From positions 21,472 through 85,471 of the forward strand of contig DFKE01000016.1 of assembly GCA_002373505.1 (NCBI GenBank): a DNA stretch of 64,000 bases, read 5' to 3'. The stretch is from Bacteroidales bacterium UBA3653. GTDB taxonomy: Bacteria; Bacteroidota; Bacteroidia; Bacteroidales; Paludibacteraceae. Shown one piece after another: positions 542 to 64,000 of this stretch; the first letter of the stretch is position 1, and each line of letters starts with the position of its first letter. The notes under the pieces are model-generated. The model worked only from the letters and a program-made list of their open reading frames with translations, was not told where the DNA came from and did not search any database. The translations under genes and the position numbers were made by a program.

Positions 542-544
542 GAA

Positions 545-1936: not shown

Positions 1937-1960
1937 TTCGTAATTCGTAATTTGTAATTC
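1935..1960. repeat. AATTCGT family array, intergenic
   Basis: aattcgtaattcgtaatttgtaattc. It starts inside the TAA stop of the GT2 gene. Confidence 0.9.
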
Positions 1961-1963
1961 ACA

Positions 1964-3121: not shown

Positions 3122-3147
3122 ATGGTAAATGACTAAATGGTAAATGA
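3096..3147 (+). repeat. family A array (15-nt super-period) spanning the SpoIID stop and the methyltransferase start
   Basis: taaatgaccaaatagtaaatgactaaatggtaaatgactaaatggtaaatga. Stop TAA is at 3119 and ATG at 3137. Confidence 0.9.
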
Positions 3148-4393: not shown

Positions 4394-5200
4394 GGTGAAC
4401 GCGTCCGCTTTTTTCAGAGTTTCTGGAGTGTCCAGTTGCACGCCGCCGCAATGAGGTGACATCAGCAGAATGCGGTCGGAGAGGGCGAGCGCCAGATCCA
4501 GTTCATGCGTAGAGATCAGGATAGTCTTTCCCTGTTCGTGAGCCAGTCTCCGCAAAAGTCTCAGTATCATAATCCGGTGTGGCAGGTCGAGATGAGCGGT
4601 TGGTTCGTCCAGAAGGATAACCGGTGTCCGCTGCGCCAAGGCTTTAGCTATCAGTATGCGCTGTTTCTCTCCGTCGGAATGGCTGTTAAAGAAAGACCGT
4701 CCTATGGACTGTAGGACCGCTCCGCTGTCGTTCACTATAGCATCTTCAAACCCCACTTCGCGCAGACTTTCTTCGATGATCCGTTCGTCCTCTTTCGACA
4801 GCCCGTCCAGAAAAGAGGTATACGGATACCGTCCCATCGCCACGACGTCATGCACCGTCGTGTTCTCCAGCGAGAGCCGCTCCGTCAGAACAAGAGAGAC
4901 CGCGTTGCTGTTAGCCCGCCGCGCTGTTAGACCGGTTCCGCCTGTAAGACTATAAGTGCCGGACAAGGGAGGTTGGAGTCCGGCGAGGGTGCGGATGAGT
5001 GTGGACTTGCCGCAGCCGTTTGGACCGAGCATGCAGACCAACTCACCCTCATAGAGCGAGAAAGTAAGGTCCCGCTGAATAGTCTTTCTGCTTTCGACAG
5101 GCTCTGTCCCGTCACCGGTAACCCGTAACCCGTCACCCGTAACCCCTCTATCGGCATACCCGATGGACAGTTTATTCGTAGAAATAGAGACGTTGTACAC
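4355..5200 (-). CDS. ABC transporter ATP-binding protein (iron-chelate/cobalamin-importer-like)
   Basis: 281-aa ORF with Walker A GPNGCGKST, signature SDGEKQR and Walker B ILLDEPTAHLD. Confidence 0.8.
   Translation of the reverse strand: MYNVSISTNKLSIGYADRGVTGDGLRVTGDGTEPVESRKTIQRDLTFSLYEGELVCMLGPNGCGKSTLIRTLAGLQPPLSGTYSLTGGTGLTARRANSNAVSLVLTERLSLENTTVHDVVAMGRYPYTSFLDGLSKEDERIIEESLREVGFEDAIVNDSGAVLQSIGRSFFNSHSDGEKQRILIAKALAQRTPVILLDEPTAHLDLPHRIMILRLLRRLAHEQGKTILISTHELDLALALSDRILLMSPHCGGVQLDTPETLKKADAFTSAFGMDIFHPLG
5108..5146. repeat. heptamer array CCCGT(C/A)A x5, in-frame in the ABC ATPase gene (minus strand)
   Basis: cccgtcaccggtaacccgtaacccgtcacccgtaacccc. The coding strand gives GVTGDGLRVTGDG. 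Confidence 0.9.
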
Positions 5201-7127
5201 GGCGTGAAACGGAGGTTAGTATTTCGTATGTTATTGTTCCGAGTTTGTCGGCGAGTTCCTGCAGCGTCACATGCTCGCCGAAGATCTCGACGGGGTCTCC
5301 CGGTCTGGCGTCGGTGCCGGTGACGTCTATCATTGCCTGGTCCATGCACACATTGCCTACCACGGGGCACCGTTTGCCCCGGATATAGACCTCTCCGCCG
5401 TAGTTGGAGAAGCGGCGGTCGAAGCCGTCGGCATAGCCGATAGGTATGACGGCTATCACGCGGTCCTCGTCCAGTTTCGTATGGCGTCCGTAGCCGATCG
5501 TCTCACCGGCTTTGACGGTCTTAACGGAGAGGATCGTGGTCTCCAGGGAGCACACATTGCGGAGGCGTGCGCCGGCGAAGGAGAAACCGTACAGACCTAT
5601 ACCCAGACGGCACATGTCGAACTGGTAGTCCGTGAAGCGCTCTATACCTGCAGAGTTGAGGATATGCTTTAAGATAGACCGCCCTTCGGGCTGACAGAAC
5701 ACAGACCGCTCTGCTGACAGACCGGCTACGCCTGACAGACCCTCCTTCAACTCCTCCGCGCAGTCGTCGAAATAGCGTATCTGTTGGAGGGTGAAGTCGT
5801 CGAACTGCGCCTCGTCGCTGCCGGCGAGATGGGAGAAGACAGACGCTACGCGGACGGCTTTGGTCTGCTGCAGTTTGCCGATGAGCCAGGGTATGTCTTC
5901 TTTGTAGAAACCGAGACGGTGCATGCCGGAGTCAATCTTGATATGTATCGGCACGTTCTCCAGCCCTTTGGCTTCCGCGGCGGCGATAACGGTCTTGAGC
6001 GACTGGTGGGAATAGACGTTCGGTTCCAGGTTGTTCTCCAGAATCAGGTCCATCGCCGCCACTTCGGGATCCATGATGATGATGGGCAGCGTGATACCCG
6101 CCTTGCGTAACTCGACACCTTCGTCCGCCACCGCTACTGCCAGGTAATCAACTAATGTACAATTTGACGATGTACGATGTACGAAGGAGTCATTTGCTTT
6201 TTGCAAGGCACGGCTGACCTCGACGCTGCCGGCTCCGTAGGCGAAGGCTTTGACCATACAGGTCAGCTTCGTCTCCGGTTTGAGGAGCGACCGGAAATAG
6301 CGCACGTTGTCCACCAGCGCACTCAGGTTCACCTTAAGAACCGTCTCGTGCGTCTGGCGCAGGATCCGTTCGGCGATGACCTCTTCGTCGTAACCCAGCG
6401 CTCTCATGACGGCGGCGCAGGTGCGCACGTTCTGGTGGGTTGGGTCCTCGATGACCTGCTCGGAGTGGATGAACAGTTTCATCTTCTCCTCCCGTTTCTG
6501 CTCCAGCGACGAGAAGTTCTCGTCGTGCTCGTGTCCGATATAGGTGATCACGCCAATGGTAGGACGGATCATGGGCTCCAGCTTCTCCATCTCTCCGGGC
6601 TGGGAGATGCCTGCTTCGAAGATAGCCAATACCCCTCTCCCTTCTGCACTTCTGCACTTCTGGCCCGTGGCCCGTAACCCGTCACCCGTCACCCGTAACC
6701 CCTCTAGCCCCCAAACGCTCAGCGGCACTCCTATCTGTGAGTTATAGGACTTAGGCGAACGGATGATGTCGTAGTCGTCTTTGAGGAGCTGGTATAGCCA
6801 TTCCTTGACCACCGTCTTGCCGTTGGACCCTGTGATACCGATGACGGTACCTTTGAACTGCGCACGGACATACGCCGCCAGAGCCTGCAAAGCCGCTATG
6901 CTGTCGCCGGTGACGAATGCTCGCACTCCTTTTTCCCGCAACTCAGGGATGTATTTCGCGCCGTCGTCTTTGTCCGTCTTGATAGCAAAGAAGAGCGTGT
7001 GCTCCGCCTTTTCCTTGTCCTGCGCGAGCGTCCTGCTGTCGGTGAGCAGATATCGGATCTCGAGGTCATCCTCTCCTGTAACATCGGCAATAGCCCCTAT
7101 TGCCTTCCTGATTTCAGATAATTTCAT
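5172..7127 (-). CDS. alr: bifunctional Mur-ligase-like (MurF-type) / alanine racemase fusion protein
   Basis: Track ORF 5172..7202 trimmed to Met26 (ATG 7127..7125), because 7149-7180 is a canonical promoter. GITGSNGKT P-loop in the N-terminal half and MVKAFAYGAG PLP-lysine motif in the C-terminal half. Confidence 0.75.
   Translation of the reverse strand: MKLSEIRKAIGAIADVTGEDDLEIRYLLTDSRTLAQDKEKAEHTLFFAIKTDKDDGAKYIPELREKGVRAFVTGDSIAALQALAAYVRAQFKGTVIGITGSNGKTVVKEWLYQLLKDDYDIIRSPKSYNSQIGVPLSVWGLEGLRVTGDGLRATGQKCRSAEGRGVLAIFEAGISQPGEMEKLEPMIRPTIGVITYIGHEHDENFSSLEQKREEKMKLFIHSEQVIEDPTHQNVRTCAAVMRALGYDEEVIAERILRQTHETVLKVNLSALVDNVRYFRSLLKPETKLTCMVKAFAYGAGSVEVSRALQKANDSFVHRTSSNCTLVDYLAVAVADEGVELRKAGITLPIIIMDPEVAAMDLILENNLEPNVYSHQSLKTVIAAAEAKGLENVPIHIKIDSGMHRLGFYKEDIPWLIGKLQQTKAVRVASVFSHLAGSDEAQFDDFTLQQIRYFDDCAEELKEGLSGVAGLSAERSVFCQPEGRSILKHILNSAGIERFTDYQFDMCRLGIGLYGFSFAGARLRNVCSLETTILSVKTVKAGETIGYGRHTKLDEDRVIAVIPIGYADGFDRRFSNYGGEVYIRGKRCPVVGNVCMDQAMIDVTGTDARPGDPVEIFGEHVTLQELADKLGTITYEILTSVSRRVQRLYFYE
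5676..5741 (-). repeat. GGTCTGTCAG composite element, in-frame in alr fusion
   Basis: The plus strand carries ctgacagaac, ctgacagacc and ctgacagacc at 16-20-nt spacing. The coding strand encodes GLSAERSVFCQPEGRS. Confidence 0.85.
6155..6188. repeat. ATGTACGAAGG family, in-frame (antisense orientation) in alr fusion
   Basis: atgtacaatttgacgatgtacgatgtacgaagga. Confidence 0.85.
6632..6704. repeat. composite of a partial GC-hairpin word, CTTCTGCA x2.5 and CCCGTNA x5, in-frame in alr fusion
   Basis: cccctctcccttctgcacttctgcacttctggcccgtggcccgtaacccgtcacccgtcacccgtaacccctc. The coding strand gives GLRVTGDGLRATGQKCRSAEGRG. Confidence 0.85.
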
Positions 7128-7148
7128 TGCTGATACAAAATTTGCATG

Positions 7149-7180
7149 CAAATTTACTGCTTTTTTTTGAGATATGCAAG
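7149..7180 (-). promoter_or_regulatory. Bacteroidota-type promoter for the alr fusion gene (CTTG -33 / TAAATTTG -7)
   Basis: The reverse complement reads cttgcatatctcaaaaaaaagcagTAAATTTGcatg, with a 20-nt spacer. Confidence 0.6.
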
Positions 7181-7387
7181 AAAAAATACACTTTTTTGCC
7201 ATATTTATGTCTTCCTATATTAGTTTGGAGATTTTGCACCCAGCGCGGCGCAACACCCGGCTAACACGAACCGGATCATCATCCGCCGCGGACGGCTTTA
7301 CATCCGGACAGAAAATGCCCTGTACGACATCCTCGGAAACAAACAAAGACCCCTCACCGACGATTACGACTCAAAATAGACTCCGCA

Positions 7388-7558: not shown

Positions 7559-7597
7559 ACAAAAATCGTCTCTCGGGGCGATTTTTGTCTTTTTTAT
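7559..7597 (+). terminator. intrinsic terminator with no annotated gene upstream
   Basis: 10-bp stem acaaaaatcg/cgatttttgt, 10-nt loop, then cttttttat. Confidence 0.6.
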
Positions 7598-7628
7598 TTG
7601 CATATATGCAAAAAAAGCAGTACCTTTG
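7597..7628 (+). promoter_or_regulatory. Bacteroidota-type promoter for dxs (TTTG -33 / TACCTTTG -7)
   Basis: TTTGcatatatgcaaaaaaagcagTACCTTTG with a 20-nt spacer, about 45 nt upstream of ATG 7674. Confidence 0.7.
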
Positions 7629-7673
7629 CGGCGTAAATTGCGTGAGTATGCGCTCACGTGAACGAAAACAAAG

Positions 7674-9662
7674 ATGAATTATCAGTATATCAATAAGATT
7701 GATTCGCCGGCGGATTTGAAGAAGATACCGCTTGAGGAACTGCCGGCGGTGTGTGCGGAGTTGAGACAGTTTATCATTGAGGCACTCAGCAAAAACCCGG
7801 GACACCTTGCTTCGTCATTAGGCGCCATAGAGATCACCGTGGCGCTGCATTATGTGTTCGACACGCCGGACGACAAACTGGTTTGGGATGTAGGGCACCA
7901 GGCTTACGCACATAAGATCCTGACCGGACGGCGCGACCGCTTCCATACCAACCGCCAGTTCAAGGGACTATCCCCCTTTACCAACCCCGCCGAGAGCGAA
8001 TATGACGCCTTCATCGCAGGACATGCCTCTAATAGCATCTCTGCGGCGCTGGGAATTGATATAGGAACAAACCTCACCCCGACCCTCTCCCGAGGAGAGG
8101 GAGGAAAGAAGCGCAACGTAGTAGCTATTATAGGGGATGGAGCGATGACGGGCGGACTGGCGTTCGAGGGGCTCAACAACACCTCGATGGACAAAAACAA
8201 CCTGCTCATTGTGCTCAACGACAACCACATGGCAATCGACCCGCTGAAGGGCGGATTTACCCAGTACCTGGTGGACCTGACGACAAGCGCTACGTACAAC
8301 AAATGGCGCTGGCGGTTCTACCAACTGGCTTCCAGACTCCACCTCGTGGACGAACGTAAGAGACGCGCCATGCTGCGCCGGAACAACAGCCTAAAAGCAG
8401 TGCTCAGCAAACAGCCAAGCAATATCTTTACCGGACTCAACATCCGCTATTTCGGTCCCACAGACGGACATGACGTGGTAGGACTGGTGCGGATCCTGAG
8501 CGAGATAAAGAACCACCGCGGCCCCAAGGTGCTGCATATCATCACCAAGAAAGGCAAAGGCTACGCGCCGGCGGAGAACGACCAGACCGTTTGGCATGCG
8601 CCGGGAGAGTTCAATGTCACTACAGGCGAACGGCAGAGTGACAAACTACAAATCGCAAACGACAAATCACAAACTCCCCCTCTATGGCAGGAGGTGTTCG
8701 GAGAGACGCTTCTGGAACTGGCGAAAAAGAACGGCCGGATAGTAGGAATCACGCCCGCTATGCCCAGCGGTTGCTCGATGAGCATTATGCAGAAAGAGCT
8801 GCCGGAGAGGGTGTTTGACGTGGGTATAGCAGAAGGACATGCCGTCACCTTCAGCGCCGGACTGGCGAAAGCAGGCATGCTGCCGTACTGCAACATCTAC
8901 TCCACTTTCCTACAACGGGCATACGACAACATCGTCCATGACGTGGCGCTGCAGAACCTGCATGTGGTGCTGTGTATCGACCGCGCCGGAATAGTAGGCA
9001 ACGACGGAGCAACCCACCACGGTTTGCTCGATCTGGCATACCTGCGGCCTATTCCGAACATGCAGATCTGCGCCCCGCGTACGGCGGAGGACCTGAAAGA
9101 GATGCTGGCCCTCGCCGAGAACTTGGAAGGACCGGTGGCCATCCGCTATCCGAGAGGAAGGACAAACCCCGCCCCAGCCCTCCCCACAAGGGAGGGAGTA
9201 AAGTACGGCAAAGGCGTGAAGCTGCGAGACGGAGAAGATATTGCCGTCCTCACTATCGGGGCGATAGGAAACACCATGGCGGAAGCGATAGAGTCTGTCA
9301 GTCCGAAGGACGGTCTGTCAGCAAAGCGGTCTGTCAGTGAAACGGTCTGTCAGTCCGAAGGACGGTCCGTGAGCTTTGCGCACTACGATATGCGGTGGCT
9401 CAAGCCTCTGGACGAGGAGATACTGCACGAAGTGGGTAAGAAATACAAGACCATCGTTACTGCCGAAGACGGTATGATTGCCGGAGGACTGGGAAGCGCC
9501 GTATTGGAATGGATGGCTGACCACGGCTATACGCCACGGGTGATCCGGCTCGGAGTGAACGATCAATTTGTAGAACACGGCTCTACCAAAGAGCTCTATC
9601 ATATGTTAAAACTTGACAAAGAAGGACTATGCGAATCGTTATTGCAGGTGCCGGTGAAGTAG
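7674..9662 (+). CDS. dxs: 1-deoxy-D-xylulose-5-phosphate synthase
   Basis: 662-aa ORF with GHQAYAHKILTGRR, IIGDGAMTGG (TPP motif) and RYPRG. Confidence 0.95.
   Translation: MNYQYINKIDSPADLKKIPLEELPAVCAELRQFIIEALSKNPGHLASSLGAIEITVALHYVFDTPDDKLVWDVGHQAYAHKILTGRRDRFHTNRQFKGLSPFTNPAESEYDAFIAGHASNSISAALGIDIGTNLTPTLSRGEGGKKRNVVAIIGDGAMTGGLAFEGLNNTSMDKNNLLIVLNDNHMAIDPLKGGFTQYLVDLTTSATYNKWRWRFYQLASRLHLVDERKRRAMLRRNNSLKAVLSKQPSNIFTGLNIRYFGPTDGHDVVGLVRILSEIKNHRGPKVLHIITKKGKGYAPAENDQTVWHAPGEFNVTTGERQSDKLQIANDKSQTPPLWQEVFGETLLELAKKNGRIVGITPAMPSGCSMSIMQKELPERVFDVGIAEGHAVTFSAGLAKAGMLPYCNIYSTFLQRAYDNIVHDVALQNLHVVLCIDRAGIVGNDGATHHGLLDLAYLRPIPNMQICAPRTAEDLKEMLALAENLEGPVAIRYPRGRTNPAPALPTREGVKYGKGVKLRDGEDIAVLTIGAIGNTMAEAIESVSPKDGLSAKRSVSETVCQSEGRSVSFAHYDMRWLKPLDEEILHEVGKKYKTIVTAEDGMIAGGLGSAVLEWMADHGYTPRVIRLGVNDQFVEHGSTKELYHMLKLDKEGLCESLLQVPVK
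8072..8108 (+). repeat. GC-hairpin element (family P), in-frame in dxs
   Basis: cctcaccccgaccctctcc-cgag-gagagggaggaaag encodes LTPTLSRGEGGK. Confidence 0.85.
8641..8675. repeat. heptamer array ACAAA(C/T)(T/C) x5, in-frame in dxs
   Basis: acaaactacaaatcgcaaacgacaaatcacaaact encodes DKLQIANDKSQT. Confidence 0.85.
9165..9203 (+). repeat. GC-hairpin element (family P, 39 nt), in-frame in dxs
   Basis: aaccccgccccagccctcc-ccacaa-gggagggagtaaag encodes NPAPALPTREGVK. Confidence 0.9.
9293..9368 (+). repeat. GGTCTGTCAG composite element, in-frame in dxs
   Basis: gtctgtcag x4 with spacers tccgaaggacg / caaagcg / tgaaacg / tccgaaggacg. Encodes GLSAKRSVSETVCQSEGRS. Confidence 0.9.
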
Positions 9663-10963
9663 GCACGCACTTGGCAAAGTTGCTGAGCCGCGAAGACATG
9701 GAAATCAGTCTGCTGGACGAGAGCCAGGAGCGCTTGGGAGACCTCAGCGCCAACTACGACATGCTCACCAAAGTGGGCAACCCTACCTCTATTCACGACC
9801 TGCGTGAGATAGGCGTGAAGGACTGCGACCTCTTCATAGCCGTCACTCCCCATGAGACGGAGAACATGACGGCTTGTCTCATTGCCAACTCATTAGGTGC
9901 AAAGCGCACGCTGGCACGCATCGACAACTACGAATACCTGCTGCCCGAGAACCGGAAATTCTTTGAGAACATGGGTCTCAACCATCTCATCTATCCGGAA
10001 GTGCTCGCAGCCAACGAGATAGAAGAGAGCCTGCGGACCAACTGGATGCGATATCATCTTCATCTGGGACAAGGTGCGCTGGAGCTTTGCGTAGTTAAGG
10101 TGCGGGCTGGAGCCAAGGTAGTAGGTCAGCCCTTCTCGTCCGGCATCTACAACCACGGCAAATACCGCATCGTAGCTATCAAACGCGGACAAGAGACCAT
10201 CTTCCCGCGTGGTAACGACAGCGTGGAAGAGAACGACATGGTTTATTGCGTGTGCCCAAAAGAGAGCATGGAGTTCATGCGTGAAGAGTTGGGCAAGTCG
10301 AAACGCGAGATCAATAATGTGATTTTCTTCGGCGGCGGACGCGTCGCACGCAAAGCGGCTACCGAACTGACGGAAGAGATGAATATCAAGATCATCGAGA
10401 AAGACCGTGAGCTTTGCAACATCCTGAGCGAGAAAGTACCGAACGCACTGATCATCAATGCCGACGGAAGCGACATGGACGTACTCAAGGAAGAAGGTAT
10501 TCAGGACGCAGACGCTTTCGTAGCCGTAACCGACAGCAGCGAAGCTAACATCTTTGCCTGCCTTGCCGCACAGCGTTTCGGCGTACGCAAGACCATCGCA
10601 GAAGTAGAGAACCTCGACTACATTCCGATGGCGGAAGGGTTGGATATAGGAGCGGTGCTGAACAAAAAGACCATCGCTGCCAGTTATATCTACCAGATGC
10701 TGCTGGACGCATCCGTCCGCGGCGTACACAACCTGACGAGTGCGGATGCCGAGATTGTGGAGTTCTACGCCAAAGAAGGCAGTACGATCACCCGCCACAA
10801 GGTCAAGGACGTAAACCTGCCGGAGGAAGCCAACATCGGCGGCATCGTACGCGCAGGAGAAGGCATATTGGTTAACGGCGAGACGCAGATCATTGCAGGC
10901 GATTTGGTCGTTGTGTTCTGCAAAAGCCACGTGATCAGACATTTAGAGAGATTCTTCAAATGA
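9629..10963 (+). CDS. trkA: Trk system potassium transporter, NAD-binding subunit
   Basis: 444-aa ORF with two RCK/Rossmann halves (IAGAGEVG, FFGGGRVA). Precedes trkH. Confidence 0.9.
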   Translation: MRIVIAGAGEVGTHLAKLLSREDMEISLLDESQERLGDLSANYDMLTKVGNPTSIHDLREIGVKDCDLFIAVTPHETENMTACLIANSLGAKRTLARIDNYEYLLPENRKFFENMGLNHLIYPEVLAANEIEESLRTNWMRYHLHLGQGALELCVVKVRAGAKVVGQPFSSGIYNHGKYRIVAIKRGQETIFPRGNDSVEENDMVYCVCPKESMEFMREELGKSKREINNVIFFGGGRVARKAATELTEEMNIKIIEKDRELCNILSEKVPNALIINADGSDMDVLKEEGIQDADAFVAVTDSSEANIFACLAAQRFGVRKTIAEVENLDYIPMAEGLDIGAVLNKKTIAASYIYQMLLDASVRGVHNLTSADAEIVEFYAKEGSTITRHKVKDVNLPEEANIGGIVRAGEGILVNGETQIIAGDLVVVFCKSHVIRHLERFFK

Positions 10964-12413: not shown

Positions 12414-12440
12414 ATGTACGAAGGAACGATGTACGAAGGG
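12414..12440. repeat. ATGTACGAAGG family, intergenic (trkH / SGNH)
   Basis: atgtacgaaggaacgatgtacgaaggg. Confidence 0.9.
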
Positions 12441-12469: not shown

Positions 12470-13792
12470 GTGAAACCGTATAAGGTACTTATATTTATAG
12501 TCTGTTGTTTTGCGAGCCTGGCTGCGCTATGTGTAGTGCTGCCCGGACGGATTGCTATCGGAGACAAAGAACTTCGCTGGCCTACCTTGGCAGAGGTGTT
12601 TGAAGAGAAGGAGTCCGTAAAGTCCTTAGAGTCTTTAGAGACCTTAGAGGCCTTAGAAACCACAGAGCCCCAAGACACCGCTATTTCAGCAGGGCAAGAC
12701 ACTCTTGCCCCGAAACCCAAGCCTCCTATTCCCAAAGTGCCGGTTGATTCAGTGACGGACAGCCGTATGTTTCTCGCTGCTTTCTATGCTTCGCTGGCGG
12801 AGAGCAGCGACCGTGTAGTGCGCGTGGTGCATTACGGCGACAGCCAGATAGAGGAAGACCGGATGAGTCAGCAGATCCGCGAGAAACTGCAAACGCTGTA
12901 CGGCGGACAGGGTTGCGGACTGATGCCGCTGGCACAGACCATTCCTAACAAGACCGTACATCAGCAACTGCGCATGAACGGGCGGTTCGTCCAACCCGCA
13001 CAAGGTCCGAGGCGGTATCTGGTTTACGGACCTAAAAGAGACCAGCGGCAAGACGGTATGTACGGTGTGATGGGACAAGTGACGATGATGAACGACAGTC
13101 TCGTCAAAGGCAGCGAAGAGGTGACGGCGGTCTGCACACCGCTCATTCCCACCGCGCAATATACCCGGTGGAAAGTGTTTGCGGACACGTCCATCCACTA
13201 TACCTTCGCCGGAGACACGGTCTTCCTGTCCGGACGCGGAGCGGTCTATGGACTCTCGCAAGAGAGCGACAAAGGCGTCATCGTGGACAACATCCCTATG
13301 CGGGGCTGTCTGGGCTTGGTGTTTACCAAGATGGACGGGACGCAGCTGAGTTCTTTCTACCGGGACCAACATGTCAAACTCATCATCATGCAGTTCGGCG
13401 GCAATGCCATTCCATTCAATGAGAACCCCGGTACCATTTCCGGCATCGTGAAAGGTCTGCGCGAACAGGTGCAGTACGTACAGTCATGCGCCCCGGAGGC
13501 TTCGATACTGTTTATCGGTCCGAGCGATATGCTCACTCAGGAAGAAGGCGAATGGATCTCTTATCCGATGGTGCCTTACATGGACCGGCTGCTGCGCAAG
13601 ATGGCGCTGGAAGAAAACATAGCCTATTTCAGCCTCTTCCGGTGGATGGGCGGAGCAGGCAGTATGAAGAGATGGCAGGAGATAGGTCTGGCAGGTTCGG
13701 ACGGCGTACATTTCACAAGAGCCGGTGCACGCAAAGCCGGCAATGCCGTCGCTGACTGGATCATAGAAGGAATAGATAATTGTGCATTGTAA
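12470..13792 (+). CDS. SGNH/GDSL hydrolase-family protein (partner of the downstream MBOAT O-acyltransferase)
   Basis: 440-aa ORF with GTG start and an N-terminal membrane anchor. VVHYGDSQIEEDR resembles SGNH block I. Confidence 0.55.
   Translation: MKPYKVLIFIVCCFASLAALCVVLPGRIAIGDKELRWPTLAEVFEEKESVKSLESLETLEALETTEPQDTAISAGQDTLAPKPKPPIPKVPVDSVTDSRMFLAAFYASLAESSDRVVRVVHYGDSQIEEDRMSQQIREKLQTLYGGQGCGLMPLAQTIPNKTVHQQLRMNGRFVQPAQGPRRYLVYGPKRDQRQDGMYGVMGQVTMMNDSLVKGSEEVTAVCTPLIPTAQYTRWKVFADTSIHYTFAGDTVFLSGRGAVYGLSQESDKGVIVDNIPMRGCLGLVFTKMDGTQLSSFYRDQHVKLIIMQFGGNAIPFNENPGTISGIVKGLREQVQYVQSCAPEASILFIGPSDMLTQEEGEWISYPMVPYMDRLLRKMALEENIAYFSLFRWMGGAGSMKRWQEIGLAGSDGVHFTRAGARKAGNAVADWIIEGIDNCAL
12612..12661. 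repeat. 9-nt-period array, in-frame in the SGNH gene
   Basis: agtccgtaaagtccttagagtctttagagaccttagaggccttagaaacc encodes VKSLESLETLEALET. Confidence 0.85.
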
Positions 13793-13809: not shown

Positions 13810-15764
13810 TCCTCCACCACATATTTGCCTTTGACGCGAACTCGCCGTTGCTGTTCACCCAGTTCTATTTCTGGGCGTTCTTTGCGCTGGTCTTCGCACT
13901 GTTTGCGCTGATCATGAGCGGTAAGACAGCAGAAGGAAAGAGCAGGCTTCACTTGCGCAACGTCTATCTGCTGTTCGTCAGCTGGTTCTTCTACTACAAG
14001 ACCAGCGGACTGTTTCTGCTTATTCTGGCTTTTGTCACCCTCTCCGACTGGATCATAGCCGGACGAATCCATAAACATCTTACAGGCAAAGCCGGTCCTA
14101 CAGCCAAAATCCTTTTGGCGCTCTCTGTGGTAATTGACCTCGGACTACTGGCTTATTTCAAATACGCCTATTTCTTCACGAACATGATCAATGACCTGTT
14201 CGGCACAGGTTTCCGGGTGTTTGACATCTTTGCTTATATCGGCAACGGTTTCAGCGAAGCGGGACGTTTCTCCGTGGACACAATCGTGCTGCCGGTGGGA
14301 ATCTCGTTCTATATCTTCCAGGTGATTTCCTATACCGCGGATGTCTATCGCAGAAGGATTCAGCCGGTGAAGAACATTCTGGACTTCGGGTTCTACGTAT
14401 CTTTCTTCCCGCAGTTGGTAGCAGGTCCTATCGTTCGTGCGGAGGAGTTCATTCCGCAACTGTACAAGCCTTACCGTCTGAGCCGCAGAGCGTTCGGCAT
14501 TGCAGTGTTCTGGATACTGAACGGTTTGGCGAAGAAGATCATTATGTCGGATTACTTAGCAGTAAACCTGATAGACCGTGTCTTTGACAACCCGCTGCTC
14601 TTCTCCGGCTTTGAGAACCTCTTTGCGCTCTTTGCCTACTCGCTGCAGGTGTATGCGGACTTCTCGGGCTACACGGATATAGCCATCGGAGTAGCGATGC
14701 TGATGGGTTTCTATCTGCCGATGAACTTCAACAGCCCTTATAAATCGCAGAGTCCGCAGGAGTTCTGGCGGCGGTGGCACATGTCGCTCGGACGGTGGCT
14801 GAAGACGTATCTCTATATCCCCTTGGGCGGCAACAGAAGAATCGGTTTCGGTACGTATTTCTGGCTCAGCCTCATTGCGTTTGTCTCTGCGGCGCTTACC
14901 GGCTGGTGGTGGCAGATACTCGTGCCGTTTGGGGTCTTTATGGCAGGCGTGGCTGTTGCAGACAAGGTCTTTAAGGGCACTAAGGACTCCCATAACGCCA
15001 TTAGCCCTCGCCGTAAACTTCTTTACGCGAATTTGAACTCATTCATCACACAGGTTCTGGGCGGTCTGTGGCACGGCGCGAGTTGGAACTTCATTATATG
15101 GGGCGGTATCAACGGTATCGGAATGATCGTAGAGAAGATATGGCGGGGCATGAACTGGCATGTACGGATGGCATGTATATCTCTGCTCACCGGCGGACTC
15201 TGGCTCGCGGTCTATTATACAAACCTGCCTGCATGGAGGCTCTTCGCCGTCTGGGCTTCTATCGTCGCTTCCGGCACCCTCATCCGGTATATCTATTGGC
15301 TTGCCTGCAAAGCAATAAACAGGCCGCAGGCCGCTAAACAGGACGATAGTCCGCTAAACAGCACCAACGATGCGCTCAACGCCCTAAGCAACGCGTGGGC
15401 GATCGCCCAGACTTTCACTTTTATCACTTTCACGCGTCTGTTCTTCCGTTCCTCCAGCAATCTGGACCCTGCTACTGCCAACGAGGTAGCATGGGCGACA
15501 GCGAAGAACATGGTAAACCAGATCGGCGGAGCGTGGAATAACGCTATCATTCCTGATTTCCTCTGGGAGTACCGATGGGTGGTGGCAATGTTCGTTGCCG
15601 GCATGGTCATTCACTGGCTTCCGACCAACTGGAAAAGGCGGTACCGTCTGGCGTTCAGCGCTATGCCGCTCTGGCTGATGGTGATAGCAGTTTGTGTTGC
15701 CATCGTCATAATATACCAGTTCGTCTCAGCAGAAATGCAACCGTTTATATATTTCCAATTTTAG
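13803..15764 (+). CDS. MBOAT family O-acyltransferase (AlgI/DltB-like)
   Basis: 653-aa polytopic ORF. FWRRWHMSLGRWLKTYLYIPLGGN is the conserved MBOAT histidine block. The GTG start lies in a word array. Confidence 0.8.
   Translation: MNFLHHIFAFDANSPLLFTQFYFWAFFALVFALFALIMSGKTAEGKSRLHLRNVYLLFVSWFFYYKTSGLFLLILAFVTLSDWIIAGRIHKHLTGKAGPTAKILLALSVVIDLGLLAYFKYAYFFTNMINDLFGTGFRVFDIFAYIGNGFSEAGRFSVDTIVLPVGISFYIFQVISYTADVYRRRIQPVKNILDFGFYVSFFPQLVAGPIVRAEEFIPQLYKPYRLSRRAFGIAVFWILNGLAKKIIMSDYLAVNLIDRVFDNPLLFSGFENLFALFAYSLQVYADFSGYTDIAIGVAMLMGFYLPMNFNSPYKSQSPQEFWRRWHMSLGRWLKTYLYIPLGGNRRIGFGTYFWLSLIAFVSAALTGWWWQILVPFGVFMAGVAVADKVFKGTKDSHNAISPRRKLLYANLNSFITQVLGGLWHGASWNFIIWGGINGIGMIVEKIWRGMNWHVRMACISLLTGGLWLAVYYTNLPAWRLFAVWASIVASGTLIRYIYWLACKAINRPQAAKQDDSPLNSTNDALNALSNAWAIAQTFTFITFTRLFFRSSSNLDPATANEVAWATAKNMVNQIGGAWNNAIIPDFLWEYRWVVAMFVAGMVIHWLPTNWKRRYRLAFSAMPLWLMVIAVCVAIVIIYQFVSAEMQPFIYFQF
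15316..15362. repeat. CCGCTAAACAG direct repeats, in-frame in MBOAT gene
   Basis: taaacaggccgcaggccgctaaacaggacgatagtccgctaaacagc. Confidence 0.7.
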
Positions 15765-15794: not shown

Positions 15795-16424
15795 ATGCAG
15801 ATCATCGGAATAACAGGCGGCATCGGAAGTGGCAAGTCCACAATCGCGCGGGCGCTCGCAGCCCGCGGGTACGCGGTGTATGACTGCGACAAGGAAGCCA
15901 AACGCATCATCGCCGAGAATAAGGACGTCCAGCAACAGATCATCGAACTGTTAGGAAAAAAAGCATTTGAAGAAGTACCAAGTACCAAGGGACAAAGGAC
16001 CAAGGCTTATAATACCGCCTATGTCGCGCAGTGTGTTTTTGCGGAGCCACAACTCTTGAAGAAACTAAATGAGATCGTCCATCCGGCGGTAAGAGAAGAT
16101 ATAAAAAAAATACGAATTAAAAATAACGAATTAAAAATTATCTTCATCGAATCCGCTATTCTCCAGGAGGCGGGATTAGACACGCTTTGCGATAAGATTA
16201 TTGTGGTTGAAGCGCCGGAGGAAGTGCGGATAGAACGTACTATTGCGCGGGACTATAACGGCGAAGCGACAGAAGAGAATATCAATAAGGTACGCGCACG
16301 CATACAGGCGCAGAAAACATCATCCCCCCTCCATGGGGGGACCGAGAGGGGCTTCATTCTTATTAACGACGGCCGTAAAAGTATCGATGAATTAGCAGAA
16401 GAGATTATCACACTCCTAAGCTAA
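15795..16424 (+). CDS. coaE: dephospho-CoA kinase
   Basis: 209-aa ORF with IGITGGIGSGKST P-loop at the N-terminus. Three in-frame repeat elements. Confidence 0.9.
   Translation: MQIIGITGGIGSGKSTIARALAARGYAVYDCDKEAKRIIAENKDVQQQIIELLGKKAFEEVPSTKGQRTKAYNTAYVAQCVFAEPQLLKKLNEIVHPAVREDIKKIRIKNNELKIIFIESAILQEAGLDTLCDKIIVVEAPEEVRIERTIARDYNGEATEENINKVRARIQAQKTSSPLHGGTERGFILINDGRKSIDELAEEIITLLS
15974..16005 (-). repeat. GGTACTTGG family (reverse orientation), in-frame in coaE
   Basis: agtaccaagtaccaagggacaaaggaccaagg encodes VPSTKGQRTK. Confidence 0.8.
16108..16140. repeat. ACGAATTAAAAAT x2 (14-nt period), in-frame in coaE
   Basis: aaatacgaattaaaaataacgaattaaaaatta encodes IRIKNNELKI. Confidence 0.85.
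16323..16352 (-). repeat. GC-hairpin element (family P, inverted), in-frame in coaE
   Basis: tccccc-ctccat-ggggggaccgagaggggc encodes SPLHGGTERG. Confidence 0.75.
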
Positions 16425-16522: not shown

Positions 16523-16555
16523 CTTTTACTATATATACATAGTATATATACTTTT
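16523..16555. repeat. conserved AT-palindrome block, copy 2
   Basis: cttttactatatatacAtagtatatatactttt, with arms at 16530..16538 and 16542..16550. Confidence 0.9.
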
Positions 16556-16570
16556 GATTAGTTATTTTTA

Positions 16571-16601
16571 TTTGCATATATCAAAAAAAATAGTACCTTT
16601 G
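16571..16601 (+). promoter_or_regulatory. Bacteroidota-type promoter for the lipoprotein genes (TTTG / TACCTTTG)
   Basis: TTTGcatatatcaaaaaaaatagTACCTTTG with a 19-nt spacer. Nearly identical to the dxs promoter block. Confidence 0.7.
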
Positions 16602-17621: not shown

Positions 17622-17653
17622 TTTGCGTATTTCAGAAAAAAGCAGTAAATTTG
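17622..17653 (+). promoter_or_regulatory. Bacteroidota-type promoter for dapB (TTTG / TAAATTTG)
   Basis: TTTGcgtatttcagaaaaaagcagTAAATTTG with a 20-nt spacer. Confidence 0.65.
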
Positions 17654-17708: not shown

Positions 17709-18410
17709 ATGAAAATAGCAATTATCGGATATGGCAAGATGGGCCACATGATTGAGGAAGTGGCTCGGAGCAGAGGACACCAAATAGTCGGGGTCATTGA
17801 CCCGCGACTAAATGAAGAATTAAAAATTAAAAATGAAGAATTAAGCTTGCCTCTGATTGATTTTGAGAGTGAGGAGTTTCGGAGTGCAGATGTGGCGATT
17901 GAGTTCACTACGCCGGCTACGGCGAAGGACAATATTTTGCGCGCGTGGGCGCAAGGAGTGCCGGTAGTGTGCGGGACGACAGGGTGGGATGCCGCGGCAC
18001 TAATGGACGAAGACCGACGGACACATGACAAACAAATGCTCGTGTGGAGTAGTAATTACTCCGTGGGCGTGAACATATTCTTTGAACTGAACAAGTTCCT
18101 GGCTCAGAAGATGGCGGAACAACCGCAATATACGCCTTCTATCAAAGAGATTCACCATATTCACAAGCTGGACAAGCCGAGCGGCACGGCAAAGACGCTT
18201 GCGGAGCAAATCTCCGCTATGTACGAAGGAAGGATGTACGATGTACGAAGGGAAGTGCCGATTGAATCCATCCGCGAGGGCGAAGTGCCGGGGACGCATG
18301 AGGTGACATGGGACAGTGAGGAGGATACGATCGTCATCACACACATCGCCAAAGGCCGGCGTGGTTTTGCCTTAGGAGCCGTACTGGCGGCAGAGGAGGT
18401 TACACGTTGA
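17709..18410 (+). CDS. dapB: 4-hydroxy-tetrahydrodipicolinate reductase
   Basis: 233-aa ORF with KIAIIGYGKMG NAD(P)-binding start and EIHHIHKLDKPSGTA active-site block. Confidence 0.85.
   Translation: MKIAIIGYGKMGHMIEEVARSRGHQIVGVIDPRLNEELKIKNEELSLPLIDFESEEFRSADVAIEFTTPATAKDNILRAWAQGVPVVCGTTGWDAAALMDEDRRTHDKQMLVWSSNYSVGVNIFFELNKFLAQKMAEQPQYTPSIKEIHHIHKLDKPSGTAKTLAEQISAMYEGRMYDVRREVPIESIREGEVPGTHEVTWDSEEDTIVITHIAKGRRGFALGAVLAAEEVTR
17810..17846. repeat. AATGAAGAATTAA x2 (21-nt spacing), in-frame in dapB
   Basis: aaatgaagaattaaaaattaaaaatgaagaattaagc encodes NEELKIKNEELS. Confidence 0.85.
18219..18252. repeat. ATGTACGAAGG family, in-frame in dapB
   Basis: atgtacgaaggaaggatgtacgatgtacgaaggg encodes MYEGRMYDVRR. 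Confidence 0.9.
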
Positions 18411-23018: not shown

Positions 23019-23057
23019 TGTACGAAGGACAAATGTCGAAAGTCGAAAGTCGAAAGC
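23017..23057. repeat. two families juxtaposed: ATGTACGAAGG then GTCGAAA x3, intergenic
   Basis: aatgtacgaaggacaaatgtcgaaagtcgaaagtcgaaagc. It starts inside the TAA stop of the POT gene. Confidence 0.9.
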
Positions 23058-27131: not shown

Positions 27132-27160
27132 TACGAGACACATACGAGACACATACGGGA
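27132..27160. repeat. 11-nt-period array TACGAGACACA x2.5, upstream of the FKBP lipoprotein gene
   Basis: tacgagacacatacgagacacatacggga. Confidence 0.85.
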
Positions 27161-46735: not shown

Positions 46736-46802
46736 ATATTGAGAGAGGAGGACAGAGGAAAAGCAGGAAAAGGGCAAGGGAGGGACGAAAAAAGCACAAA
46801 GA

Positions 46803-46834
46803 TTTGCGTATATCAAAAAAAAGTTGTAAATTTG
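46803..46834 (+). promoter_or_regulatory. Bacteroidota-type promoter for the CE12-like gene (TTTG / TAAATTTG)
   Basis: TTTGcgtatatcaaaaaaaagttgTAAATTTG with a 20-nt spacer. Confidence 0.6.
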
Positions 46835-50788: not shown

Positions 50789-52330
50789 ATGAAGAAAATT
50801 TTGAGCATAGTGATGCTATGCGCTGTCGCAGTGAGTGCGACGGCAGTGCCGGCACGCCGTGAGGGTATGATCCGGACTGATGCGAACGGAACAGAAAAAA
50901 TGGTGTTCCTTAACGGAGACGAGCATTTTCATTTTATCACGGATGCAGAAGGACGCTGGCTTGACGAAGAGACCTTGCTGCCGATAGCAGAAGAAGAGAA
51001 AACTGCGCGTATGGCGAAAGGACAACAGCGCGCCAAAGCCCGCCGTGCAAGGCAGGAAACGGGAGTGGACCGTCTGCTGGCACCGAAAGGGGCTGTTATT
51101 CTGGTCAGTTTCAAGGACCTGGATTTCAGCCAGTCCAATGAGGATATGACCCAATGGGCGATGGGAGAGACATACACCTATAACGGTGCTACGGGATCCA
51201 TCCACCAGTATTTCAACGACCAGAGTTGGGGAGAGTACGACATGGATATTGATGTCATTGGCCCTGTGACGGTTAGCAGGAACTACTCCTATTACGGTAG
51301 CAACGACTGGGGAGGGAATGACAACCACCCGGACGAACTGGTCAAAGAGGCGTGCCAGTTAGCCGCAAAACAAGGAGCCGATTTCAGCCAATACGACAAC
51401 AATGATGACGGAGAAGTGGACTGGGTGGTTATTCTCTATGCGGGTAAAGGCGAAGCGGACGGAGGAGCAAGCAACACGATATGGCCTCACCAATACGATC
51501 TGAGTTATACCGATATGTCCTTCAAGTTGGATGGCAAGACGATAGATCACTACTGCTGTCTCAACGAGATTGACGGACAAACAGGCGAACGGTGCGGTAT
51601 CGGTACTTTCTGCCATGAGTTCAGCCATGTGATGGGGTTGCCGGATTTCTATGCCACCGTAGAAGGCGCCACGCACCGCACGATGGTAGATTGGGACATC
51701 ATGGACTACGGGCCTTATAATAACGATGGTAACACGCCTCCCAACTATTCCGCCTACGAGCGGTGGTTCATGGGATGGATCACTCCGCGCGTGCTGACAG
51801 AGCCGGAAAACACCTTGTTAGGTCCGCTTCAAGAGACCAAACAATCCTTGCTGATGTGCAACGGAAACGCACATAATTTAGACGGCCTGAACCCGTTACC
51901 CAGAACATTCTATTTACTGGAAACCCGCGCACAGGAAGGATGGGACAAGTACCTCGCCGGCAAAGGGCTGATGATCACCAAGATCCAATATGATTCCGAT
52001 AAATGGTACAGCAACACTGTCAATAACACGTCCAGCAAATTAGGCGTGGACCTGATAGAAGCCAAAAAGAACACGTCGGCTTACTACAGCCGAGCCACCG
52101 ATCTTTTCCCTGCCGGAGCGAATTCATTCACCGGTTTTGCAGATCACGAGATTACGGACATCGAACTCTATGCGGATGGCTACATCGGATTCAAATACAA
52201 CGGCGGATGGCCGGAAGGGATTGAAGACGTACAAGGGAACGATGTACAATGTACAAAGGTATTGCGTGGCGGCAAGGTAGTTATTATCCGCGAGGGAAAG
52301 GAATACGATATTTTAGGTAATCGTTTATGA
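50789..52330 (+). CDS. M6-family zinc metalloprotease with T9SS-like C-terminal tail
   Basis: Track ORF 50777..52330 trimmed to ATG 50789 ([10 protein letters not shown]), because the TTG at 50777 lies inside a GAGAATT array. HEFSH at 51614..51628. C-terminus is [22 protein letters not shown]. Confidence 0.8.
52229..52259. repeat. ATGTAC(G/A)AAGG family variant, in-frame in the second M6 protease gene
   Basis: gtacaagggaacgatgtacaatgtacaaagg encodes [10 protein letters not shown], just before the C-terminal tail. Confidence 0.8.
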
Positions 52331-62161: not shown

Positions 62162-63325
62162 TTATATCCCAAACAGATTATGGAAGAAACTCTTTTTCTC
62201 TCCTGCTCCCGGAGCTATGTTCGGGCTGTTCTGGAGTTGTTCGATCAGCTTGCGTTCCTCTTTGCTCAGTTTCTCGGGGATATAAACGCCTACGTTGATT
62301 AGCAGGTCGCCCTGACCGTAACTGCGGCCGTATTGGTCGATGCGCGGCAGTCCTTTGCCCCTCATCCGCAGCACCTTGCCCGGCTGCGTACCGGGGGTGA
62401 TGGTTATCTTCACATCGCCTGTGAGCGTAGGAATCTGCACCTGGCCGCCCAATACCGCTGTAGGCATGTCCAGCAACAGGTTATATACCAAATCGCTCTC
62501 CTGACGGATGAAGTCCTTGTGCTCCTCTTCCTCTATCATCACTATCAGGTCGCCGGGAACACCACCTCTTGGCGCAGCGTTTCCTTTGCCCGGAACGGTC
62601 AGCTGCATACCTCCCATCACGCCGGCTGGGATGTTTACCGTGATGATATCTTCGTCGCGTACTACTCCCTGACCGCCGCATTTGGGGCATTTGTTCTTGA
62701 TGATCCGTCCCTCGCCGCCACAGGTGTCACAAACGCTCTGGACCTGCATCATGCCGAAGATACCGCGTTGGGCACGGGTCACACGGCCGCTGCCGTGACA
62801 GGTCGGACAGGTCTCTGTCTTACCGTCCGCACTACCGGTACCATGACATTCCTTGCATTCCACAAGCCGCTTTACCTTGATCTTCTTCTCGCATCCGGTA
62901 GCTATCTCTTCCAACGTCAGCGATACGCGTCCCCGCAGGTCACTTCCTTTGCGCACACGCTGGCCGCGACTCCTGCCGCCGCCCATAAACATCTCGCCTA
63001 TGTCGCCTATATCGAATCCTGCGCCTTGGAAGATATCCCCGAAGTGGCTGAATATATCTTCCATAGACATTCCTCCGCCGCTGTATCCGCCTGCGCCGCC
63101 CATGCCGGCAAAGCCGTACTGGTCATAACGGGCACGTTTCTGCGGATCGGACAGCACCTCGTAAGCCTCGGCGGCTTCTTTGAATTTCTCTTCCGCCTCC
63201 TTGTCACCGGGGTTCTTGTCCGGATGGTATTGGATAGCTTTCTTGCGGTAAGCTTTCTTTATCTCTTCTGCGCTCGCGGTCTTTTCCACGCCGAGCACTT
63301 CATAATAATCTCTTTTTTCAGCCAT
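62162..63325 (-). CDS. dnaJ: molecular chaperone DnaJ
   Basis: 387-aa ORF with a J-domain (HPDKNPGD), a G/F-rich region and four CxxCxGxG zinc motifs. Confidence 0.95.
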
Positions 63326-63330: not shown

Positions 63331-63360
63331 AACGATTTAACGGTTTAACAATTTAACGCG
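63331..63360. repeat. 8-nt-period array (CGATTTAA / CGGTTTAA / CAATTTAA), dnaJ-grpE spacer
   Basis: aacgatttaacggtttaacaatttaacgcg. Confidence 0.85.
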
Positions 63361-63363: not shown

Positions 63364-63885
63364 TTATTCGCCAACCACTACTTTGGCAAAACGGATCACT
63401 TTCTCACCCATCTTGTAGCCTTTCTGGGTGCAGTCGATCACTTTGCCTTTCTTGTCCTCGCCGGCGGCAAAGGTAGTCACGGCTTCGTGTTCGTCGGTAT
63501 TGAAATCCGCGTTCTCCGTCTCCACGGCGTGGACGTCATGTTTGTCGAGGAAAGAGAGGAACTTCTGATAAATCAGTCGTACTCCCTCGTCGTCAGTAGC
63601 GGCTATCGCTCTTTCGAAATCGTCGATGAGCGGCAGCATTTCCGTGAATATCTTCTCTCCGGCTCTTTCTGTCAGTTCTATTTTCTCTTTGTTGGTACGC
63701 TTGCGGTAGTTGTCGAACTCTGCCATCATGCGCAGGTTCTTGTCCTCCATCTCTGCCAGTTGGCTTTCGGCCTTCGCTTTTTGGCTCTCGGCTTCTGCCA
63801 CTTGCTCCTCCAACTCATGCAGGCGCGCCTGCAACTTTTCTTGCTGTTCTTGCTGTTCTTCTTGTCTCTTGTCTTTTTTTGCCAT
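63364..63885 (-). CDS. grpE: nucleotide exchange factor GrpE
   Basis: Track ORF 63364..63984 trimmed to Met34 (ATG 63885..63883; MAKKDKRQEE...), because the upstream 33 codons translate a repeat element. Coiled-coil followed by the GrpE C-terminal domain. Confidence 0.85.
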   Translation of the reverse strand: MAKKDKRQEEQQEQQEKLQARLHELEEQVAEAESQKAKAESQLAEMEDKNLRMMAEFDNYRKRTNKEKIELTERAGEKIFTEMLPLIDDFERAIAATDDEGVRLIYQKFLSFLDKHDVHAVETENADFNTDEHEAVTTFAAGEDKKGKVIDCTQKGYKMGEKVIRFAKVVVGE

Positions 63886-63887
63886 AT

Positions 63888-63943
63888 CTTTGTACTTTAA
63901 TTTGTCCTTCGTACATCGTACATCGTTCCTTTGTACTTTAATT
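63888..63943. repeat. ATGTACGAAGG-family core flanked by a perfect 15-bp direct repeat
   Basis: ctttgtactttaatt [tgtccttcgtacatcgtacatcgttc] ctttgtactttaatt. The direct repeats are at 63888..63902 and 63929..63943. Confidence 0.9.
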
Positions 63944-64000
63944 CGTTCTTTCAAATCCCATGCCACAGCCTCTTTCCCTGCCAATTTGTCAGTCGCAGCA

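Follow-up and report, generated by a model that had tools for sequence, protein, structure and literature searches.

The grpE leader and its paired 15-mer

Does the sequence immediately upstream of grpE in the uncultured rumen Paludibacteraceae lineage analyzed here carry the footprint of an insertion? The question is raised by a 56-nt feature at positions 63888 to 63943 of the window, that is, of the whole stretch of 64,000 nucleotides under analysis. As the first-pass annotation had reported, a perfect 15-bp direct duplication is present: CTTTGTACTTTAATT occurs without mismatch at 63888-63902 and 63929-63943 of the plus strand, and these are its only two copies in the window. A 26-nt spacer, tgtccttcgtacatcgtacatcgttc (63903-63928), separates them, and the plus strand reads ...catat CTTTGTACTTTAATT tgtccttcgtacatcgtacatcgttc CTTTGTACTTTAATT cgttctttcaaatcccatgcca... 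in that order. Since order-2 Markov shuffles predict 0.02 exact direct repeats of at least 15 nt within 100 nt per window, the pair is not a chance occurrence. The repeat extends to 22 nt with 20/22 identities (63888-63909 versus 63929-63950) as GAAGGACNAATTAAAGTACAAAG, whose general form is GAAGGAC-N-AATTAAA-GTACAAAG. On the sense (minus) strand the upstream 22-nt copy (63929-63950) consists of AAGAACG followed by AATTAAAGTACAAAG, its last 15 nt being the upstream 15-mer. Besides the composite array at 9293-9367, the pair is the window's only direct repeat that reaches 12 nt with its copies 10 nt or more apart; the sequence between them is made of other words than the repeated unit. No inverted repeats were found in or around 63888-63943, so the feature has no terminal inverted repeats. 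A CRISPR-like unit has at least three repeats of 23-47 nt with unique spacers; here there are two repeats of 15-22 nt and the spacer is itself a dispersed repeat, which argues against a repeat-spacer unit of that kind.

The feature is placed upstream of grpE, only 2 nt from the start codon (ATG at 63885-63883, minus strand). The gene, at 63364-63885 (minus strand), encodes 173 aa, with a Pfam GrpE match and a coding sequence covered by RNA contigs; dnaJ (62162-63325, minus strand; Pfam DnaJ match) follows downstream. The layout of the sense strand is CTGACAAATTGGCAG-N12-TGGCATGGGATTTGA-AAGAACG-AATTAAAGTACAAAG-GAACGATGTACGATGTACGAAGGACA-AATTAAAGTACAAAG-AT-ATG. The element TGGCATGGGATTTGA (63951-63965, minus strand) has the TGGCAY-N5-TTGA geometry of a sigma-54 -24/-12 promoter, with TTGA instead of the canonical TTGC as its -12 box, and both motif and spacing are kept in 62/62 relatives. 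The palindrome CTGACAAATTGGCAG (63978-63992, minus strand), located about 12 nt upstream of the -24 box, is a candidate regulator site and is invariant among the close alleles. Its consensus in relatives is CTGCCAnnnTGGCAG and its position is kept across the 62 grpE upstream regions (L004-L130), where CTGCCAnnnTGGCAG, a spacer of about 10-12 nt and TGGCAY-N5-TTGA form a module. The palindrome is too near the promoter for a typical enhancer site. Sigma-54 promoters are enriched at Bacteroidota chaperone genes according to a 2025 survey, and transcription of grpE is sigma-54-dependent in B. thetaiotaomicron and F. psychrophilum (PMC12316311). The promoter seen here resembles these chaperone promoters in its TGGCAY-N5-TTGA motif at a fixed distance upstream of grpE, a likeness that concerns the setting and not the repeat.

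The feature is thus part of the 5' leader of grpE, between the conserved sigma-54-type promoter and the ATG. From promoter to ATG this leader measures 65 nt, against the usual 27-28 nt among the 62 relatives, and subtracting 41 nt from it leaves 24 nt. Downstream of the promoter, most relatives have a TTGAC-N3-5-GTCAA hairpin and a leader of 27-28 nt, whose consensus is cgatgtcaaagtgtaaaaytatgcaatt. Other lineages have unlike word arrays in the same leader: GATAATT in L012, TAGATGA in L014/15/17, GATTTTA-type words in L084/92/97, 91 nt of GAATTAR in L101, and a further array in L087. Repeats are also found elsewhere around the gene. The grpE-dnaJ spacer (63331-63358) is an 8-nt array, AACGATTT x3.5, and relatives have other arrays there, such as GTACCATTTGGTCATGTACCATGTACCATTT in L005, L015, L017 and L114 with the same 15+7 spacing as the leader units described below. 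Within the gene, a 9-nt repeat, TTCTTGCTG x2.6 (63838-63860), encodes the GrpE stretch QEEQQEQQE, and allele L083 has one 9-nt unit fewer as an in-frame deletion.

A dispersed element that extends into the supposed flank

The 26-nt spacer had been described as the core of an element with copies elsewhere in the window. ATGTACGAAGG is indeed enriched, with 8 exact and 2 one-mismatch matches against 0.93 expected, and it was found at the sites listed for the family in the first pass (6155/6157, 12414, 18219, 23017/23018 and 52229). The edge of the core, on the other hand, had been misplaced. The family element at grpE, GTACAAAGGAACGATGTACGATGTACGAAGGACA (63903-63936, minus strand), has at least 34 nt and takes in, besides the 26 nt of 63903-63928, the 8 nt of the upstream 15-mer that correspond to GTACAAAG. 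This whole segment was matched with 0 mismatches at another locus (X19 record 25, on a 10.2-kb contig). When Logan contigs from 16 rumen and gut DNA runs were aligned to 63700-64000, each run gave one contig spanning the locus and dozens from other loci that matched only about 63905-63940; contig depth climbed from about 7 to 200-3500 over the family element, and the edges of the partial matches fell at about 63905 and at 63936-63943. RNA contigs of other loci match L001 152/156-187/189, the same pattern as in DNA. The dispersed element therefore takes in 8-12 nt of the supposed flank.

A spaced motif, GTAC-N11-GTAC-N3-GTAC followed by RAAGG, was found at four sites in the window and at none in shuffled sequences. 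Its copies are GTACAAAGGAACGATGTACGATGTACGAAGG at grpE, where the 3' half of the upstream 15-mer supplies the first GTACAAAG, GTACGAAGGAAGGATGTACGATGTACGAAGG in dapB, GTACAATTTGACGATGTACGATGTACGAAGG in alr and GTACAAGGGAACGATGTACAATGTACAAAGG in an M6-like peptidase gene. The family member at 18219-18251 (plus strand) lies in frame inside dapB, where it encodes the loop SAMYEGRMYDVRR, and is conserved across species at the nucleotide level; that at 6157-6187 (plus strand) is antisense to a gene for a Mur ligase-Alr fusion (5172-7202, minus strand), within its alanine-racemase domain. A third member, at 12414-12439 (plus strand), occupies an intergenic spacer and has one extra heptamer (ATAATGT) in close strains, and a fourth, at 52229-52259 (plus strand), with the variant words GTACAAGGG..GTACAAT GTACAAAGG, lies towards the 3' end of the M6-like peptidase gene. 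A further copy of GTACGAAGGACAAAT is found at 23020-23034. The antisense copy in the N-terminal domain of the racemase indicates that the words are not confined to the coding strand, and the arrays of a given word mostly follow the orientation of the local genes. A search of viral contigs with AACGATGTACGATGTACGAAGG gave 0 matches and no sign of phage carriage.

The flanks as array words

An insertion footprint calls for flanks that are arbitrary target DNA, and here they are not, because the 15-mer recurs in a GTAC array of another species. The exact 15-mer AATTAAAGTACAAAG was found at L011:2662 within CAATGTACAAAGGGACAAATAAGGTACGAAGGAACAATTAAAGTACAAAGAAC, an array of GTAC words, and a 14/15 version was located in another GTAC array at L011:901, while exact matches expected by chance amounted to about 0.0014 in the 756 kb searched. 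L011 is from a different species, with a GrpE 77% identical, and the exact site is about 340 nt upstream of its grpE, outside the leader. Even the junction between the supposed core and flank is present there: L011:2650-2676 (GTACGAAGGAACAATTAAAGTACAAAG) and window positions 63914 to 63888 (GTACGAAGGACAAATTAAAGTACAAAG) agree at 25/27 bases. Shorter pieces of the flanks recur in the window as well. ACGAATTAAA, which takes in the base pair that precedes the upstream 15-mer, has 4 copies where 0.07 are expected, the other three being in arrays at 536, 16112 and 16126, and AATTAAA occurs 13 times against 3.7 expected.

Read in the sense direction, the leader can be parsed as TTTGAAAGAACGAATTAAA - GTACAAAGGAACGAT - GTACGAT - GTACGAAGGACAAATTAAA - GTACAAAG - AT - ATG, with units of about 19, 15, 7 and 19 nt and then a truncated one. 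The first unit (u0, TTTGAAAGAACGAATTAAA) is degenerate and fused to the -12 box. The second (u1, GTACAAAGGAACGAT; 63922-63936, minus strand) has 15 nt and equals GTACAAAG plus GAACGAT; the 15+7 spacing that it forms with the next unit is also seen at 6157, 18221 and 52229. That next unit (u2, GTACGAT; 63915-63921, minus strand) has 7 nt and falls in a tract for which TRF gives period 7, TCGTACA x2.6 at 63909-63926. The fourth (u3, GTACGAAGGACAAATTAAA; 63896-63914, minus strand) has 19 nt, equals GTACGAAG GACA AATTAAA, and crosses the supposed core/flank junction. The truncated unit u4, GTACAAAG, is followed by AT and the ATG, and the ATG-proximal 15-mer AATTAAAGTACAAAG (63888-63902, minus strand) is formed by the end of u3 together with u4. 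Each 15-mer is accordingly the joint of a 19-nt-type unit with the next GTACAAAG word, a joint that is present twice. The degenerate u0 agrees with u3, the later unit of 19 nt, at only 13/19 positions. Identical units in non-adjacent positions are usual in these arrays, as at 9293/9345 (23 nt, with a 29-nt gap), 17810/17831 and 40209/40231, and relatives show the same A-x-A pattern (L097 793/847, L101 298/346). The grpE leader is an extreme case of this array grammar because its long-gap repeat is nearly unique and the gap is built of different words.

The leader has therefore been expanded by repeat material composed of family words, and the 56-nt feature is probably the visible part of a GTAC-anchored composite tandem array that fills the grpE leader and was built by unit-wise copying. 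It is best read as a four-unit array, with units of 7, 15 and 19 nt, that runs from the -12 box to the ATG. We infer a course of events in which an ancestral leader of 27-28 nt would have been replaced and lengthened by the array, through slipped-strand or template-switch copying between similar words, either within the array or from another one, with the rebuilding by word copying adding 41 nt. The same copying processes may build the word arrays that occur in this lineage at roughly one per kb. Several points count against the array reading: no ancestral allele was recovered, the path of events being reconstructed rather than observed; the long-gap repeat is almost alone of its kind in the window; the first unit resembles the later 19-nt one at 13/19 positions only; and the exact 41-nt difference fits a single insertion with duplication equally well. 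Concerning the insertion footprint of the first-pass annotation, what stands is that a duplicative event lengthened the leader (65 versus 27-28 nt); what does not stand is the target-site duplication, as the flanks are array words.

The templated gap repair or duplication that the first pass had offered as an option is still a live, if doubtful, rival. In this scenario, replication or gap repair would insert templated sequence and duplicate 15 nt in a single step: a nascent strand ending in ...AATTAAAGTACAAAG would pair through GTACAAAG with a family element elsewhere, copy GAACGATGTACGATGTACGAAGGACAAAT, and rejoin its own template by AAT/ACNAAT microhomology at a point 15 nt upstream of its departure, so that 15 nt would be copied again. 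The 34-mer copy at another locus would be a suitable donor, the occurrence of GTACGAAGGACAAAT at 23020-23034 means that ACAAAT can belong to the donor, the leader is longer than its reconstructed 24-nt form by exactly 41 nt, and the phase of the array breaks between GACAAAT and TAAAG. However, the junction GAAGGA(C/A)...AATTAAAGTACAAAG is contiguous in another species and need not be a repair junction, and no second example was found among the 650 arrays or the about 20 strain differences described below.

Alleles of the leader and possible functions

GrpE scans of genome and metagenome contigs yielded four distinct close alleles. At 96.5-98% nucleotide identity, all four assembled alleles have both 15-mers intact while 5 nearby positions vary. 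At least six haplotypes were distinguished in 16 rumen and gut metagenomes, all of them with the full arrangement. The variants in these 16 runs include 63904 G>T, 63944 C>G and 63947 T>C, the last giving AAGGACC+... and bringing the context of the upstream copy nearer to that of the other copy. Two more, 63938 T>C and 63941 A>T, fall in the upstream 15-mer; none was reported in the ATG-proximal 15-mer in any haplotype seen. An empty site in related strains, which the first-pass annotation had suggested looking for, would be an ancestral leader ...GAACGAATTAAAGTACAAAGATATG with a single 15-mer. It was not found in the four alleles or the 16 runs, all of which are filled, nor was a joint or a 41-nt deletion seen at the locus in the contigs of the 16 DNA runs, which drop rare variants. 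The leaders of relatives with at most 85% GrpE identity are not alignable. Gain or loss of units, which occurs at nine other arrays including the family member at 12426, was not seen at the grpE leader in the at least six haplotypes. The full arrangement is fixed in the clade, and since all haplotypes share it, it is old relative to the clade and not hypervariable. Point changes in the array of allele L003/L082 (GTACGAAGGACA to GTATGAAGAAAA) create an in-frame ATG with a predicted GrpE extension, MKKKLKYKD, a case in which array sequence can become coding.

The persistence of the two copies might also reflect selection on two functional 15-mers, one for the sigma-54 transcript start and the other for translation initiation, or on two protein or RNA binding sites, possibly together with a short upstream ORF or a weak RNA thermometer. 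We regard this as improbable. It would account for the two perfect copies in the four alleles and for the lack of reported variants in the ATG-proximal one, and in the filled leader GUAC pairing can give rise to a weak structure (-6.8 kcal/mol, z = -2.5). Against it, the upstream copy varies in two haplotypes, zero changes in about 30 nt at about 3% divergence is not significant, and relatives manage with a different leader of 27-28 nt. The upstream ORF of 8 codons (63897-63923, minus strand; ATG TAC GAT GTA CGA AGG ACA AAT TAA) is incidental, being created by the array, and its length is not conserved: it has 8 codons in L002, and in L003/L082 there are 4 codons and then the in-frame ATG. The structure is both weak and allele-dependent: over 92 nt the minimum free energy lies between -4.6 and -6.8 kcal/mol, and for the reconstructed short leader it is 0. 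A search of the leader against Rfam at E<=1 returned nothing relevant, with one chance miRNA match elsewhere. An RNA thermometer or riboswitch was rejected on these grounds.

Metatranscriptome contigs over grpE begin inside the coding sequence (L001 232-293), so no transcription start was placed. As to the consequence for the gene, the array likely makes the 5' UTR longer, rich in purines and nearly free of structure, with the sequence next to the ATG still native-looking. For an organism whose translation initiation does not use a Shine-Dalgarno sequence, the expansion is probably close to neutral, and its tolerance would follow from the preserved context at the ATG.

The 41-nt period of the repeat, which extends to 22 nt, suggests as well a simple tandem duplication of the promoter-proximal leader whose non-matching 19 nt were later overwritten by words, and word cassettes do overwrite sequence in this lineage; but these 19 positions match at only 3/19 (L001 123-163 versus 164-204), and two events would be needed, one of them landing exactly between the copies. 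We rejected the simple 41-nt duplication on the 3/19 match, and even with later overwriting it is very improbable.

Flanking duplications and changes at other arrays

In the window as in its relatives, TRF detects arrays at a density of about one per kb. We tested 650 arrays for direct repeats in flanks taken strictly outside the arrays and compared them with matched control positions. Flanking direct repeats of at least 8 nt were present at 1.1% of the arrays and 1.3% of the controls, with no excess, and the grpE site was the only one of the 650 to reach a flanking repeat of 12 nt. The family members within the window at 6157, 12414, 18219, 23018 and 52229 have no flanking duplication. An excess of 7-11-nt brackets seen when flanks were allowed 8 nt into the arrays consisted of array words and was gone in the strict test. 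The target-site duplication thus fails by the second refuting condition of the first pass, namely that flanking duplications are absent from the other elements.

Four close strains, collinear with the window over 6.4-28.4 kb at 86-98% nucleotide identity, showed about ten cassette replacements and nine unit gains or losses at arrays. The gains and losses include +7 (ATAATGT) at 12426, inside an ATGTACG array, +7 each at 23032, 17701 and 21449, +10 at 18476, -15 at 23341 and -11 at 27132. Sharp-edged replacements by unrelated cassettes were seen at 9290 (84 versus 33 nt), 18113 (16 versus 43 nt), 18740 (27 versus 63 nt) and 21099 (11 versus 61 nt), and further cases are alike. None of these about 20 differences is accompanied by a flanking duplication. 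Among DapB homologues of 70-100% identity, lengths vary between 204 and 285 aa because 4-5 loops hold differing word-encoded peptides in a mosaic. The observed modes of array change are thus unit slippage and cassette replacement, and target-site duplications take no part in them. The duplication at grpE had been held to be a clue to how these elements arise, and neither the 650 arrays nor the strain comparisons bear this out, as flanking repeats are not general.

Classical transposition, with a 26-nt mobile element and a 15-bp target-site duplication, has in its favor the A-B-A appearance only and is hardly credible: there are no terminal inverted repeats, the homology ends fall inside the upstream duplication, the duplicated sequence recurs at a non-orthologous locus of another species, no such duplication was found at any other array, no presence/absence polymorphism was seen, and 26 nt is, to our knowledge, far below the size of any known autonomous or non-autonomous element. 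A mobile element that makes target-site duplications was rejected on every defining test, that is, ends, constant duplications, arbitrary flank and empty sites.

Comparison with known repeats

The composite array that we favor for the grpE leader was compared with several kinds of short repeats. The leader has head-to-tail 7-nt copies, the array ends just before the grpE ATG, and the ACATCGT class to which its heptamer belongs has three period-7 TRF rows in the window and six when near relatives are included. Heptamer repeat arrays are a known kind of sequence, and the feature is one variant of them.

Period-7 long simple sequence repeats have been described in prokaryotic genomes (Mrazek, Guo & Shah 2007, via PMC4679880). 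As far as they are characterized in that secondary account, the arrays of this lineage resemble them in that period 7 is the dominant class (41 of the 91 TRF rows in the window) and in the gain or loss of single units between strains, which fits polymerase slippage. They differ, on the same account, in their mixed units of 7, 8, 15 and 19 nt, in the words of 17-34 nt common to non-orthologous loci and to different species, and in being often in frame inside genes. Direct repeats of TAACTGA and other heptamers are located shortly before start codons in Beggiatoaceae, in cyanobacteria and in some of the Bacteroidetes, Paludibacter propionicigenes among them (MacGregor 2015, PMC4679880), and "larger assemblages of heptamer repeats" were noted in intergenic regions of other Bacteroidetes (PMC4679880). 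The grpE leader shares with them the location of the repeats between promoter and start codon, the lack of a Shine-Dalgarno sequence, and the shorter and repeat-free spacers of relatives. Those repeats are runs of one heptamer, and the cases within ORFs are mostly at protein ends (PMC4679880). In contrast, the arrays of the present lineage have many words and composite units, and they often lie in frame in internal protein loops.

The STRR sequences of cyanobacteria, attributed to Mazel et al. in 1990, are reportedly a small vocabulary of heptamers, tandemly amplified, dispersed in the genome and described as non-coding. In all but the last respect the arrays of this lineage are like them. We know of no function or origin for the STRR heptamers, nor of any description of higher-order A-x-A units among them. 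They belong to a different phylum and consist of different words from those seen here. The likeness to the target-site duplications of IS elements and MITEs lies in the direct repeat that brackets a repeated sequence, whereas here there are no inverted ends, no constant duplication and no empty sites, and the flanks are family words. The literature on heptamer repeats and sigma-54 gave no description of the arrays of this lineage.

Arrays across the lineage

Many of the 91 TRF rows of the window correspond to arrays in frame inside genes. The ORF of a GT2 glycosyltransferase (545-1936), for example, contains four of them (740-772, 935-970, 1326-1358 and 1517-1548). Recurring words are AAATGGT, AGTCGAA, AATTGAG, TAATTCG, CCCGTAA and AAATTAA. 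Hairpins rich in GC and about 35 nt long, CCCCACCCCGACCCTCCCCTCAAGGGAGGGAG being one, make up a second dispersed family, found at L165-L168 (for L166 at about 13478-13515 and 13831-13873, for L167 at 10405-10447) and in the window at about 16318-16352. These hairpins are present in frame in genes, as in the DapB loops SPQPSPEGKGG and PLPSREG, and after stop codons, and they alternate with word arrays as alleles of one site. Long promoter-like motifs, ATTTGCATATATCAAAAAAAA and CAAAAAAAGCAGTACCTTTGCG, are common to non-orthologous loci of other species (sites at 7592-7630, 16570-16590, 17636-17653, 46802-46824 and 7147-7180); CAAAAAAAGCAGTACCTTTGCG ends in the Bacteroidetes -7 box TAnnTTTG. The AT-palindromic TACTATATATACATAGTATATATACTTTT at 16527-16555 is also common to loci of other species.

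A further observation concerns the dapB member of the ATGTACG family. A 57-nt block (18198-18254), made of CTTGCGGAGCAAATCTCCGCT and the in-frame element, differs by one base in three lineages (L162-L164) whose DapB is only 71-76% identical to that of the window. Within the block, 16/17 codons for identical residues are the same, versus 79/149 elsewhere in the gene (p = 0.001). The 21 nt before the element contain a hairpin, GCGGAG-caaat-CTCCGC. Possible explanations of the synonymous conservation are a function at the nucleotide level, templated re-copying or short-patch recombination. With this in-frame element, whose codons are identical between species at 16 of 17 positions when about half are so elsewhere, as its basis, we put forward a broader reading, tentatively and as a possibility rather than an expectation: in rumen Paludibacteraceae an active copy-and-paste process, lineage-wide and neither transposase-driven nor simple slippage, may write a common stock of modular 7/8-nt words and GC-rich hairpins into all permissive sequence (leaders, spacers and protein loops), with sharp-edged replacement without target duplication and with words whose nucleotides are identical across species, and it would also have produced the grpE leader.

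Taken alone, the grpE feature is a minor event, the lengthening of a leader by repeat copying, and ruling out the insertion footprint averts a wrong model of mobile 26-nt elements with 15-bp duplications. The wider context, which matters more, is that of about one short word array per kb, of long words common to different loci and species, of cassette swaps between close strains, and of in-frame arrays in genes for housekeeping enzymes (DapB, alanine racemase and the GT2 glycosyltransferase, for instance). There are practical effects on gene calling, on alignments of protein families and on short-read assembly, as word positions are where Logan contigs break off. How heptamer arrays (STRR, TAACTGA) originate is a question of decades' standing, and this lineage offers many pairs of filled, empty and replaced sites in public metagenomes on which slippage, templated conversion and selection on a DNA motif are testable as models.
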